From positions 2,170 through 66,169 of the forward strand of contig CACKRO010000002.1 in assembly GCA_902602695.1 (NCBI GenBank): DNA of 64,000 nucleotides, given 5' to 3'. Origin of the DNA: an uncultured Alphaproteobacteria bacterium (GTDB taxonomy: Bacteria; Pseudomonadota; Alphaproteobacteria; HIMB59; GCA-002718135). This document shows positions 8,847 to 12,655 of the stretch, in pieces. Position 1 is the first letter of the stretch, and each line of letters begins with the position of its first letter. Below the pieces are notes generated by a model. The model searched no databases. It was not told the DNA's origin and saw only the letters and a program-made list of their open reading frames with translations. Made by a program: the position numbers and the translations under genes.

Positions 8847-9832
8847 TGAAATACATAATTAGAATTTTATTAAGTACATTAGTTTTGTTAATTGTGGTTT
8901 ATTTTACAGCAGGTTTTTATGTTGCTTATCAAATTTTAAAAATAGATCCAACATGTGGTCTCCATGAAGGATCTCTTCCTAATTCATGGAGTACAAAAGT
9001 TGATGCACATGAATACTCAATTCTTGCTCAACAAAAAGTAAGAGAAAATTTTAACTTCAAGGATTATTATTTAGATGAATGGCAAGATGTATATTTTCAA
9101 TCTCGTGACTCTGACATCAAGATTAATGGATGGTTATTTAATTACTTTCCAAATAGACCAATTATAATTGTTACACATGGCATAAGCCCAAATGGTAAAT
9201 GTAAGTCTGAGTCCAACATTATTGCAAGTTTTCTAGTTAATAAAAATTTTAATGTTCTTACGATAGATTTAAGAAACTATGGTCAAAGTGATACTGTTAG
9301 TAGTTACGATGATTTAGGTTTAAGATCATATAATGATATTCTTGGTGCATTCGATTTTTTAAAAAAAATTGGTTTTAAGTCTAAGAGTATTGGTTTACAT
9401 GGAATTTCTCTTGGAGCAAGCACATCTATTTTTGCCGCAAATGTAGAACCAGAAATACTTGCGATATGGGCTGATAGTCCACTTGCTGAGTTTAATATGA
9501 TTTTAAAAGATGAAATTGCAAGATATGGTCTGTCTATAGAATTTGGACCAGCTGTAAGTTTAGCTGGAAGAATCTTAACCGGAATAGATCCAACTAAATT
9601 ATCTCCTGCTAAAAAATTATCAGATAAACAATTTTATTTTTTCACTCACGGTGATTCTGATACAAGAATCTTAACAAGACATTTTAATTATTTTAAAGAA
9701 TATACAAATAAAAATAATATTAACTCTGAGTTTTGGTTGGTTGAAAATGCTTATCATGTAGATGCTATGTTTAAATATCCGGAAGTATATTCTAAAAAGA
9801 TGGAAGATTTTTTTAATAAAAATTTAAAATAG
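8843..9832 (+). CDS. membrane-anchored alpha/beta hydrolase
   Basis: An N-terminal TM helix, a GISLGAS nucleophile elbow and a late HGDSD/H motif. Confidence 0.55.
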   Translation: MMKYIIRILLSTLVLLIVVYFTAGFYVAYQILKIDPTCGLHEGSLPNSWSTKVDAHEYSILAQQKVRENFNFKDYYLDEWQDVYFQSRDSDIKINGWLFNYFPNRPIIIVTHGISPNGKCKSESNIIASFLVNKNFNVLTIDLRNYGQSDTVSSYDDLGLRSYNDILGAFDFLKKIGFKSKSIGLHGISLGASTSIFAANVEPEILAIWADSPLAEFNMILKDEIARYGLSIEFGPAVSLAGRILTGIDPTKLSPAKKLSDKQFYFFTHGDSDTRILTRHFNYFKEYTNKNNINSEFWLVENAYHVDAMFKYPEVYSKKMEDFFNKNLK

Positions 9833-9969
9833 GCCGGACTCTAAAACTAGTTTGTACCTTGGCAGACACCTCTCTAGAATAAGAAACTCAACTAATTATC
9901 AAACGGCGGGTAAGATAATCAAAATTCTTGGCGTTCCTCCGAAGCTAAGAAACGAGTATTATCCGGCTC
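9833..9969 (+). ncRNA. candidate structured RNA or 5' leader element upstream of sdhC, class unknown
   Basis: This block is visibly richer in G+C than its surroundings. A closing helix pairs 9833-9838 GCCGGA with 9962-9967 TCCGGC. Hairpins form at 9895-9900/9914-9919 and 9927-9932/9944-9949. The sub-motifs CTTGGC...TAAGAAAC are duplicated. The strand assignment is tentative. Confidence 0.35.
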
Positions 9970-10155
9970 AATTAAACTAATATTTATCAATCCAAAATTC
10001 AAGATTTTTAGTCAAATTTGGAAACAAAGTGGGGAATTTTTCTAAGTTTTGCTCTATTTTTATCAACATTCTACGATATATCTATCATAATATTAGATAA
10101 AAACTTTAATTTTTGAATTTTTTGAGAAAAAATATAATCATATTCTACTTATTCT

Positions 10156-10536
10156 ATGTCTAACAAATTTGAAAATAGGCCTTTATCACCACATTTATCA
10201 ATCCACAAAAAGGTTTTAACTGCTGTTTTTTCGATATTTCATAGAATTACAGGAATAGGCCTAAGTATTGGAGCTATACTTATATCAATTTGGTTCATCC
10301 TAATTAGTTTAGGGCCTAGTTACTTTGCTTATTTCCAAATTATCTCTTCAAGCATATTTTTTAAATTAATATTGATACTTTGGTCATTTGGCATTTTTTA
10401 TCATCTATTTAATGGAATAAGAAAATTATATTGGTCCTTTGGCATAGGAATGGATTTGAGAAGTGTTTATGGTTCAGGCTACGTAGTTATATTCTTGACA
10501 TTTTTATCTACAATAACGGTTTGGCTCTTTGCATGA
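10156..10536 (+). CDS. sdhC: succinate dehydrogenase cytochrome b556 subunit
   Basis: RPLSPHLSI.. is the SdhC N-terminal signature. It has three TM helices and is the first gene of sdhCDAB. Confidence 0.8.
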   Translation: MSNKFENRPLSPHLSIHKKVLTAVFSIFHRITGIGLSIGAILISIWFILISLGPSYFAYFQIISSSIFFKLILILWSFGIFYHLFNGIRKLYWSFGIGMDLRSVYGSGYVVIFLTFLSTITVWLFA

Positions 10537-10862
10537 AAAATTATGCTTTAAAGTGGATTGTAAAAAGAATAACTGCTTCAATCTTAATTCCTTTAACATT
10601 CTGGTTTATTTATATTTCAATTTCTTTATCTAAAATGGAATATGACGAAACTGTTATTTTTTTTAGTTCCTATTTTAATAGTTTCTTGTTTTATCTAATG
10701 ATGATTTCTATGCTAATACACTCAAGGCTGGGACTTCAAACAATTTTAGAAGATTATGTCACATCGAAAAAAACATTAAAAATAAGTAAATTAACCATAG
10801 ATTATTTGACATATTCTTTAATGTTTCTAATAACCGTGTTTGTAATTAAAATGATAATTTAA
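10533..10862 (+). CDS. sdhD: succinate dehydrogenase membrane anchor subunit
   Basis: I chose the ATG at 10533, which overlaps the sdhC TGA (ATGA), over the longer tracked [17 protein letters not shown] is the SdhD heme-ligand/DY motif. Confidence 0.8.
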
Positions 10863-12655
10863 TGACTAAATCTTATGAAATAATTGATCATCATTATGAT
10901 GTAGTTGTAATTGGTGCTGGTGGATCCGGTTTACGTGCAACTCTAGGCTGTGCTGAATCAGGTCTTAAAACTGCATGTATTTCCAAAGTTTTTCCAACAA
11001 GAAGTCACACAGTTGCTGCTCAAGGTGGTATTGGAGCTGCCCTTGGTAACATGGGTGAAGATAACTGGAAGTGGCATATGTACGACACAGTTAAAGGCTC
11101 TGACTGGTTGGGTGATCAGGATGCAATTGAATATTTATGTTCAAAAGCACCTCAAGCTGTAATTGAATTAGAAGAATATGGAATGCCTTTTAGTAGGACT
11201 GACGATGGTAAAATCTATCAAAGACCATTTGGAGGACATTTAACAAATAACGGTGAAGGAGCTCCTGCTATGAGGGCTTGTGCAGCAGCAGACAGAACAG
11301 GGCATGCATTACTTCATACCTTATATCAACAATCTCTTAAAAACGAAGTTGAGTTCTTTATTGAATACTTCGTTTTAGATCTAATTTCAGATACAGATGG
11401 AAACTGCATAGGCGTAGTGGCATGGTGCCTAGAAGATGGATCTATTCATAGATTTTTATCACACCAAACAATTCTAGCAACAGGCGGATATGGACGAGCA
11501 TATTTTTCTTCAACAAGCGCTCACATATGTACTGGTGATGGAAGTGCTATGGCTCTTAGAAAAAACCTTCCATTATCAGATATGGAATTCATTCAATTTC
11601 ATCCAACAGGTGTATACGGTGCGGGAGTCTTAATTACTGAAGGAGCCAGAGGTGAAGGAGGTTATCTTACAAACAGTGATGGTGAAAGGTTTATGGAACG
11701 TTATGCGCCTAATGCTAAAGATTTAGCATCAAGAGATGTTATTAGTAGAGCCATGACTATAGAAATAAATGAAAATAGAGGCTGTGGGGATAATGCAGAT
11801 CATGTCCTTTTACACTTGGAGCATATTGATGCAGAGACTCTTCATAAAAGATTGCCAGGTATCTCTGAAACAGCAAAGATTTTTGCTGATGTAGACTTAA
11901 CAAAAAAACCTATACCGGTATTACCAACAGTTCACTATAATATGGGAGGTATTCCAACTAATTATAGAACAGAAGTACTTAATCCAACAAACAAAAATCC
12001 TGATAATATTTCTGAAGGTTTGTTAGCAGTAGGGGAAGCAGCATGTGTTTCAGTACATGGAGCAAATAGACTTGGAACTAACTCTTTAATTGATCTTGTT
12101 GTTTTTGGAAAGGCTGCTAGCGAAACATGTGCAGAAAAAGTTAAACCACATTCAAAAAAAATTGAAATTAGTAAGTCTAGTACTGATGAAATATTAGACA
12201 GATTTAATAATATCAGATTTAGCAGAGGTGATTCGACGACTGGAGAACTGAGAACTTCTATGCAGCATATTATGCAAAAAAAATGTGCAGTATTTAGAAC
12301 TCATGATTTAATTTCTAAAGGTATAGAAGAATACCAAGAAGTTGAAAGCTCAATGGATAACATTGATATTAAAGATAAATCACTAATATTTAACACTGAT
12401 TTAGTTGAAGCTTTAGAATTACACAATTTAATGGCACAATCAAAAGTAACTCTTCATTCTGCATTAAACAGAACTGAAAGCAGAGGTGCGCATGCACGTG
12501 AAGATTATAAGGAGAGAAATGATAATGACTGGCTTGTTCATTCTCTAGCATGGTTAAATAATAATGGTGATGTTAAAATGGGCTCTAGATCAGTTCACAT
12601 GAATACTCTAACTAATCATGTACAACCTATACCTCCTAAAAAAAGAGTTTACTAA
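10862..12655 (+). CDS. sdhA: succinate dehydrogenase flavoprotein subunit
   Basis: [12 protein letters not shown] motif, [10 protein letters not shown] covalent-FAD His, and HPTG/RGEGG motifs. Confidence 0.95.

Follow-up and report, generated by a model that had tools for sequence, protein, structure and literature searches.

A predicted small RNA gene divergent from sdhCDAB in HIMB59-type marine alphaproteobacteria, with a loop complementary to the ftsZ ribosome-binding site

Introduction

What is encoded by the G+C-rich block that lies between a hydrolase ORF (end at position 9832) and sdhC (start at position 10156), on which strand is it read, and on what could it act? The block (9833–9969) was found in a window of 64 000 nt (the whole stretch of DNA analysed here). 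A preliminary description, made from the letters alone, had presented it as a structured element upstream of sdhC in a SAR11-type genome. Its coordinates and letters were re-read from the sequence and were correct. The genome, however, is of the HIMB59/AEGEAN-169 type and not SAR11 proper. Bacteria of this type abound in the oligotrophic ocean; their genomes are very small, and few regulators are known from them. Searches of five genomes, four of which are at least 91% complete, gave neither Hfq (PF17209) nor CsrA (PF02599), and the 6S RNA model (RF00013) gave no match anywhere in 41 genomes of the order, the complete genome G037 and the block locus included. With no Hfq, CsrA or 6S RNA found in the genomes searched, a conserved single-copy RNA is therefore one of few candidate regulators.

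Results and discussion

The spacer and its conserved block

The first ~137 nt of the spacer are enriched in G+C, as had been noticed (0.41 at 9850–9949 vs 0.18–0.27 in the remaining spacer). The spacer itself had been called by far the longest non-coding gap in the core part of the window; when ORFs of at least 90 codons were counted, it ranked as the third longest ORF-free gap in the window. A small ORF at 9852–9980 (42 codons) was rejected: single-base indels between near-identical relatives break its frame, and codon periodicity is absent. The folding energy of the single sequence was unremarkable (z of −2.07 on the plus and −1.52 on the minus strand). Support for a structured RNA, as predicted here, comes from comparison and not from thermodynamics.

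Two covariance models were used, R1 built on the plus strand and R2 built on the minus strand. Both matched positions 9831–9970 in the window. The block is single-copy in its own 1.28-Mb assembly. R1 detected exactly one copy per genome in 60 of the 79 genomes of the same family (f1), in six genera, and the block in none of the 71 genomes of the sister family (f2). Relatives in the genus of the window show hardly any variation over the block, against ~80% identity in the coding flanks and a diverged or replaced remainder of the spacer. The view that the block is a conserved structured RNA was upheld by this retention, which is far better than that of the flanks, and by covarying helices. Two metagenomic variants, L270 among them, were recovered with R2 (E = 2e-8 and 3.5e-6). 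When one genome per GTDB species was scanned with a pattern, 80 matches were obtained, which belong to HIMB59, 'MarineAlpha5' and AG-SAG alphaproteobacteria with the sole exception of one contig labelled as a Flavobacteriaceae MAG. The same kind of scan in metagenomes returned nearly only chance matches inside G+C-rich coding regions, and these were discarded; the real relatives were the loci L235, L250 and L270.

Wherever R1 matched, the gene order was zapE–hydrolase–block–sdhCDAB. At one locus (L073:1126–1494, genome G076) the hydrolase is degraded to N- and C-terminal remnants, and the RNA and sdhCDAB are intact. Diverged versions of the block, in genera g7 and g9 and in metagenomic L235, follow an MFS transporter gene instead of the hydrolase, yet stand beside sdhC. 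In the metagenomic loci L250 and L270 the hydrolase is still the neighbour. As the far-side gene varies (hydrolase, MFS or degraded hydrolase) while sdhC stays, sdhC is the constant partner. The proposed link to the sdhC neighbourhood was thus borne out: the block lies beside sdhCDAB in every genome that carries it.

A branched fold supported by covariation

The fold was tested on a structure-blind MAFFT alignment with 500 shuffles. Of the cells, 92.3% pair; the observed pairing or covariation was reached in none of the 500 shuffles, and 11 pairs change on both sides. Naive all-against-all column covariation was swamped by phylogenetic signal. Sequence comparison establishes the predicted block RNA and its branched fold, which consists of the following elements, given on the minus strand.

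9815–9969, minus strand: whole predicted small RNA gene, with its start at ~9969–9967 and its 3' end in a U-tract at ~9830–9815 (from covariance models and strand tests).
9961–9967, minus strand: 5' strand of the closing helix P1, GCCGGAU, pairing with 9833–9839.
9833–9839, minus strand: 3' strand of P1, GUCCGGC, followed by a U-rich tract in all lineages.
9954–9957, minus strand: 5' strand of helix P2, ACUC, pairing with 9886–9889; P2 encloses hairpins hp1 and hp2.
9886–9889, minus strand: 3' strand of P2, GAGU, from pairing and one-sided-change tests.
9925–9951, minus strand: hairpin hp1, UUCUUAGC-UUC[GGAG]GAA-C-GCCAAGAA, with a GGAG loop at 9940–9937 that is Shine–Dalgarno-like (CGGAGGAA).
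9893–9921, minus strand: hairpin hp2, stem UGAUUAUC/GAUAAUUA and open loop UU-ACCCGCCGU-UU, from stem covariation and wobble asymmetry.
9847–9877, minus strand: hairpin hp3, CUAG-AGAG-GUGUCU[GCCA]AGGUAC-AAA-CUAG; 99.6% of cells pair on the minus vs 77.8% on the plus strand.

In P1, 99.2% of the cells pair on the minus vs 88.4% on the plus strand in the same columns. CG is exchanged for UA by compensation in 16 sequences, and the last pair is seen as U.G, U-A or C-G. The closing helix GCCGGA/TCCGGC proposed in the preliminary description therefore exists, and it covaries (GCCGG/CCGGC, GUCGG/CCGAC and GCUGAGUA/UACUCAGC). Its supposed extension by CTC and GAG had to be abandoned: CTC at 9839–9841 is unconserved, and GAG(T) at 9954–9957 pairs instead with the conserved ACTC at 9886–9889 to form P2. 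Every cell of P2 pairs on the minus strand, its one-sided changes are all to U.G, and the helix grows to 8–9 bp in the divergent members L135 and L250.

The hairpin that had been drawn around TTCCTCC corresponds to hp1. It exists, with an invariant top (GC-G-UUC/GAA-GC) and an imperfect lower stem. This lower stem finds support on the minus reading only, with changes from U-A to U.G at 4 positions that become C.A mismatches if read on the plus strand; the minus loop is GGAG and not CCUCC. The ATTATC/GATAAT hairpin (hp2) also exists and covaries, with more than 10 stem variants. Its 9-nt loop ACCCGCCGU spans 9911–9903 and has an invariant core, CCGCCG, the complement of plus-strand 9904–9909. 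In the outer CUAG/CUAG helix of hp3, two independent changes lead to wobble pairs (C.A if read on the plus strand), and the inner helix is GUAUCU/AGAUAC in L270, where G.U pairs become A-U. The stems of hp1 and hp3 are invariant, and not their loops alone. The two-fold repeat that had been reported (CTTGGC...TAAGAAAC) can be seen in this sequence, but relatives differ in its second and third words. It is not conserved as a repeat, and the comparison lent no support to a duplication or to the 'switch-like' arrangement built on it.

Predicted strand and transcription signals

When the covarying helices are read on the plus strand, the non-Watson–Crick cells are overwhelmingly C.A or A.C, which are G.U on the minus strand. 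In hp2 the plus reading gives 18 C.A/A.C vs 1 G.U. One P1 pair (alignment columns 9–159) reads on the plus strand as C.A in 39 sequences, U-A in 14 and C-G in 2. For identical column pairs, canonical pairing is seen in 92.3% of the cells on the minus vs 82.7% on the plus strand, and one-sided changes are almost all to wobble pairs when read on the minus strand. The RNAalifold consensus energy was −27.2 kcal/mol (minus) vs −16.9 kcal/mol (plus). Two signals flank the fold.

9974–10002, minus strand: conserved promoter-like element of the RNA gene, −35 TTGAAT (10002–9997), 17-nt spacer, −10 TAGTTT (9979–9974).
9814–9832, minus strand: U-rich tract after P1 (CCUAUUUUAAAUUUUUAUU), a terminator-like end; U4–U6 directly after P1 in all lineages.

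The arrangement TTGAA(T/A), exactly 17 nt, TAnnnT was found in every genus, 5–8 nt before P1, with varying spacer letters; it is defined here from sequence only. The element fell below the threshold of the consensus scan, and its −10 hexamer is weak (3/6). The U-tract is kept also where the neighbour is the MFS gene and not the hydrolase. The terminator scan scored nothing, P1 being a long-range helix and not a local hairpin.

The RNA would be read on the minus strand from ~9969 to ~9820, divergent from sdhC and convergent with the hydrolase; we infer this strand, these ends and its expression from the pairing pattern and the flanking signals. Because such an RNA lies on the strand opposite sdhC, it is not an sdhC leader, and its loop reads GGAG. 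The plus-strand picture given at first (an sdhC leader or an sRNA displaying CCUCC) is disfavoured by the wobble asymmetry, the consensus energy, the promoter-like element and the U-tract. After the comparisons of wobble pairs, pairing, energy and flanking signals, the plus-strand model R1 was dropped.

Comparison with known RNA classes

The preliminary description could assign the element to no class, and this was confirmed: a scan with Rfam 15 gave no match at gathering threshold or at E<=10. On 9700–10250 at E<=10 only noise was returned, the best hit having E = 0.46 and 13.8 bits vs a gathering score of 88.4. Related loci gave no Rfam match either. ARAGORN found no tRNA or tmRNA gene on 9000–11000. 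The block is not the SRP RNA (RF00169): the real SRP RNA lies elsewhere (detected in 30 of 40 genomes of the genus, 47.8–59 bits), and the block was unmatched by this model. Descent from DicF (RF00039) was rejected as no Rfam family, DicF included, matches the block. CsrB/RsmZ-type sponges carry many GGA loops and work with a CsrA/RsmA partner. Such a protein sponge was rejected here, as the RNA has a single GGA-bearing loop and PF02599 was not found in the 5 genomes searched. The block fits no Rfam family, and a literature search found no paper describing the block RNA.

6S RNA is a rod with a central bubble; it binds the sigma-70 RNA polymerase holoenzyme and templates pRNA. The block RNA resembles it in several respects: it is structured, single-copy and strongly conserved, its 5' and 3' ends are paired and its predicted promoter is of the sigma-70 type. 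It differs in being branched and ~140 nt long, and in not being found in the sister family (0/71). Identity with 6S RNA was rejected, since the model does not match and the fold supported by covariation is branched (P1, P2, hp1, hp2 and hp3) and not a rod with a central bubble. The minimum-energy fold of the single sequence is rod-like and conflicts with the wobble-supported local hp1 stem.

Complementarity of the hp2 loop to the ftsZ ribosome-binding region

As neither Hfq nor CsrA was found, direct pairing partners of the invariant loops were sought. CGGCGG, the complement of the hp2 core, has 21 copies in the 1.28-Mb genome. The sole copy that lies no more than 35 nt before a start codon is the one at ftsZ (5'-AAAACGGCGGAGAUUACAAUG). 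A further copy at −38 of a parA-like ORF is probably inside the upstream gene. In the genome of the window, positions 9909–9901 (CCGCCGUUU) are a 9-nt complement of the ftsZ ribosome-binding region. The ftsZ site ACGGCGGAG (−15 to −7) does not vary among the eight f1 genera (g1 and g3–g9), and the complementarity between loop and site spans 6–9 nt in all of them; in g7 the loop UCUCCGCCG matches ftsZ CGGCGGAGA over 9 nt.

Among 1475 start regions, ftsZ ranked 2nd for the hp2 loop (−16.8 kcal/mol vs a mean of −4.7, sd 2.7). The f1 ftsZ link is post hoc because it was found by scanning all start regions. A slightly better score was obtained for the moaD/moaE junction (contig C3:32428, minus strand, of the same genome), where the moaD stop and moaE start (GGCGGGUAAUG) form a 9-nt complement of the hp2 loop (UUACCCGCC). 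This match is probably a by-product of the Gly-Gly-stop codons of MoaD. In cofolding, cognate f1 partners paired via the loop (ddG −7.1 kcal/mol) and 1 of 100 shuffled leaders was as good; non-cognate partners showed no pairing via the loop. The long duplexes predicted by full-length duplexfold were meaningless.

Three other candidate partners were set aside. A 12-nt perfect complement of the hp1 apex (TGGCGTTCCTCC, contig C12:5944) is inside the rsmH coding region and probably occurs by chance (expected ~0.05–0.1); this rsmH stands at the head of the division gene cluster. CUUGGC upstream of ftsZ belongs to the coding end of ftsA, and a CGGCGGG at position 55014 of contig C5 is inside a purL-like coding region.

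A different RNA with a matching ftsZ site in the sister family

In family f2 (HIMB59 genus), the same place by sdhC is occupied by a different conserved structured RNA of ~105 nt, present in 56 of 71 genomes. It had no Rfam match, and homology to the f1 RNA was not detected with either R1 or R2. Its sequence on the sdhC strand is GGUCG...GUGCC...CUCA[UGCGGGG]UGAG...GGCAC...CGACC (L164:4113–4223, plus strand of the locus, and L167–L196). Read on the sdhC-antisense strand, its invariant hairpin is CUCA[CCCCGCA]UGAG. In this antisense reading, a dctQ-like gene for a small TRAP permease follows ~50 nt downstream of the RNA.

The ftsZ ribosome-binding region of f2 is UUUGCGGGGAUAA in four genomes, and its site UGCGGGG complements CCCCGCA over 7 nt. 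UGCGGGG has only 20 copies in a complete 1.4-Mb f2 genome, and the chance of finding one in the 20 nt before ftsZ is ~1e-4. Cofolding of the f2 partners was no better than with shuffled leaders (35/100). As judged from these sequences, the predicted complementarity between loop and ftsZ site co-varies between the two families. The core duplex is only 6–9 bp and invariant within each family, so that there is one contrast, f1 vs f2, behind the co-variation. The two families may be regarded as offering natural 'swapped' loop/site pairs.

Proposed function and its alternatives

The best explanation is a stand-alone, Hfq-independent small RNA gene on the minus strand that probably masks the ftsZ ribosome-binding site, a reading to which we give a probability of about 50%. 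A sigma-70-type promoter of its own would drive a ~140-nt structured RNA, divergent from sdhCDAB and ending at the closing helix and U-tract. Enclosed by P1 would be a three-way domain, made up of P2, hp1 and hp2, next to the further hairpin hp3. Through its open apical loop (CCGCCG), hp2 would pair in trans, independently of Hfq, with the unusual G-rich ftsZ site ACGGCGGAG at −15 to −7, and this pairing would limit FtsZ translation. Pairing in the cell and translational repression are both suggested by the complementarity.

It is possible, if somewhat unlikely, that a stand-alone minus-strand RNA exists which does not act on ftsZ, being a protein-binding or housekeeping RNA (e.g. a 6S stand-in) or having other targets, and that the complementarity is coincidental. 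RF00013 gave no match in 41 genomes of the order, and an unrecognized RNA may carry the 6S-type function. The invariant stems of hp1 and hp3 suit contacts with a protein or tertiary contacts, and the ends are paired as in 6S and SRP RNA. The f1 ftsZ match is post hoc, and a second start region reaches a comparable score. Against this, covariation supports the branched fold and not the rod of 6S RNA, family f2 is without the block RNA (0/71), and the f2 loop matches its own ftsZ site independently, with a chance of ~1e-4.

A plus-strand RNA is quite improbable. It would be an sdhCDAB leader or riboswitch, an element of the hydrolase 3'UTR, or a decoy carrying the letters of the ftsZ site (ACGGCGGG) beside an anti-Shine–Dalgarno loop (CCUCC). 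The element is always upstream of sdhC and in the sdhC orientation, whichever the other neighbour. A plus-strand RNAalifold fold exists, with a hairpin A in which G.U pairs occur and three one-sided changes keep pairing, and the terminal P1 pair is G.U on the plus strand in 21 sequences. On this strand, however, C.A and A.C mismatches dominate at many independent positions, pairing falls to 82.7% vs 92.3% and the fold loses 10 kcal/mol of consensus energy. A plus-strand RNA offers no role for the A-run before P1; on the minus strand this run is a U-tract, also beside the MFS gene. A cis leader or riboswitch of sdhCDAB was rejected because of the opposite strand and the ~190 nt of poorly conserved AT-rich spacer before the sdhC start. 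No terminator-like site was scored that could serve as an expression platform for sdhC, sdhC is without a Shine–Dalgarno sequence, and downstream of the element there is a conserved block resembling an sdhC promoter.

Lastly, the G-rich word (ACGGCGG in f1, TGCGGGG in f2) could be the DNA site of one regulatory protein, the block serving mainly for DNA-level control of divergent promoters, since the same word stands at both loci and changes together between families, DnaA-box-like repeats would point to protein binding in the intergenic region and the ftsZ promoter spacer holds a covarying inverted repeat; this is highly improbable, as four helices with compensatory base changes favour an RNA, the word coincides exactly both with the apical loop of a covarying hairpin and with the Shine–Dalgarno position of ftsZ, and the promoter-like element and U-tract frame the block as a transcription unit.

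Relation to other regulatory RNAs

The proposed ftsZ-masking RNA can be compared with several known systems. DicF of E. coli (RF00039) is a prophage-borne, Hfq-dependent sRNA that pairs at the ribosome-binding region of ftsZ and so blocks its translation. Both are small trans-encoded RNAs exposing a sequence complementary to the ftsZ ribosome-binding site, with occlusion of translation initiation as the predicted effect here. In contrast to DicF, the block RNA comes from a core gene, single-copy and syntenic, and the genomes searched for Hfq gave none; the RNA is ~140 nt long and branched, and its regulation of ftsZ is predicted. Should its loop really cover the ribosome-binding site of ftsZ, the RNA would be a counterpart of DicF that is chromosomal and not prophage-borne, and would offer a direct handle on division timing in streamlined plankton.

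RsaE/RoxS of Firmicutes is Hfq-independent and masks G-rich Shine–Dalgarno sites with C-rich loops, many of these sites being in TCA-cycle mRNAs. The block RNA shares with it an apical loop rich in C (CCCGCC in f1, CCCCGC in f2) opposite a G-rich ribosome-binding site, the lack of Hfq and the linkage to a TCA operon. It differs in belonging to an unrelated phylum, in having no Rfam match, in its one C-rich loop instead of several, and in its predicted target, which is ftsZ and not TCA enzymes.

The pairs micF–ompC and oxyS–oxyR are divergent sRNA–gene pairs. As in these, the RNA gene is head-to-head with a conserved neighbour and has a common control region; here the neighbour is an enzyme operon, sdhCDAB, and the linkage to it is positional. 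Finally, the SAR11 sRNA-1 (partner PBC-3) of Stav et al. (2019; PMC6429828) lies between convergent genes unrelated to sdhC and has a purine-rich loop, GAGGGAG. It is likewise a candidate sRNA of streamlined marine alphaproteobacteria with a purine-rich loop (GGAGG here) and an RNA partner proposed by exact complementarity; it differs in locus, sequence, architecture and clade.

Putative control regions of the RNA gene, sdhC and ftsZ

Two features were located between the RNA gene and sdhC.

10115–10142, plus strand: candidate sdhC promoter, TTGAAT, 16 nt, TAATCA, downstream of the RNA gene (consensus match only).
10060–10068, plus strand: degenerate DnaA-box-like 9-mer TTATCAACA between the divergent promoters, the sole copy left in the window.

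Relatives keep the block TTTTTTGAAWTTCTGCAAAAAAAATATAnTTA at the candidate sdhC promoter. At the place of the 9-mer, relatives in all genera have two direct DnaA-box-like repeats, YTATCCACA-N3-TTATNCACA, with a 12-bp period (L017:1875–1895 and matching places in L021, L066, L070, L071 and L072). A perfect DnaA-box-like TTATCCACA is present in several genera, and family f2 keeps one such 9-mer, TTTTCCACA. A replication origin at these boxes was rejected: GC skew does not turn here, either in the window or in the 141-kb contig.

Expression of the RNA may be set by this shared control region with its DnaA-box-like repeats. A broader proposal can be formulated, which we regard as unlikely: a core Hfq-independent sRNA would set FtsZ synthesis by a kissing contact between loop and ribosome-binding site, co-evolved across two families, from a control region with DnaA boxes shared with the TCA super-operon. 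If true, it would form a minimal RNA link from replication or metabolic state to cell division.

On the side of ftsZ, the predicted leader is only ~20 nt long and would begin just before ACGGCGGAG. The proximal promoter-like region of ftsZ (TTGACG, 17 nt, TTAAAA) has a covarying inverted repeat, ACGATT...AATCGT, in its spacer (contig C12:20570–20645 of the same genome, L322:1430–1500 and L317–L325). This inverted repeat may be an operator.
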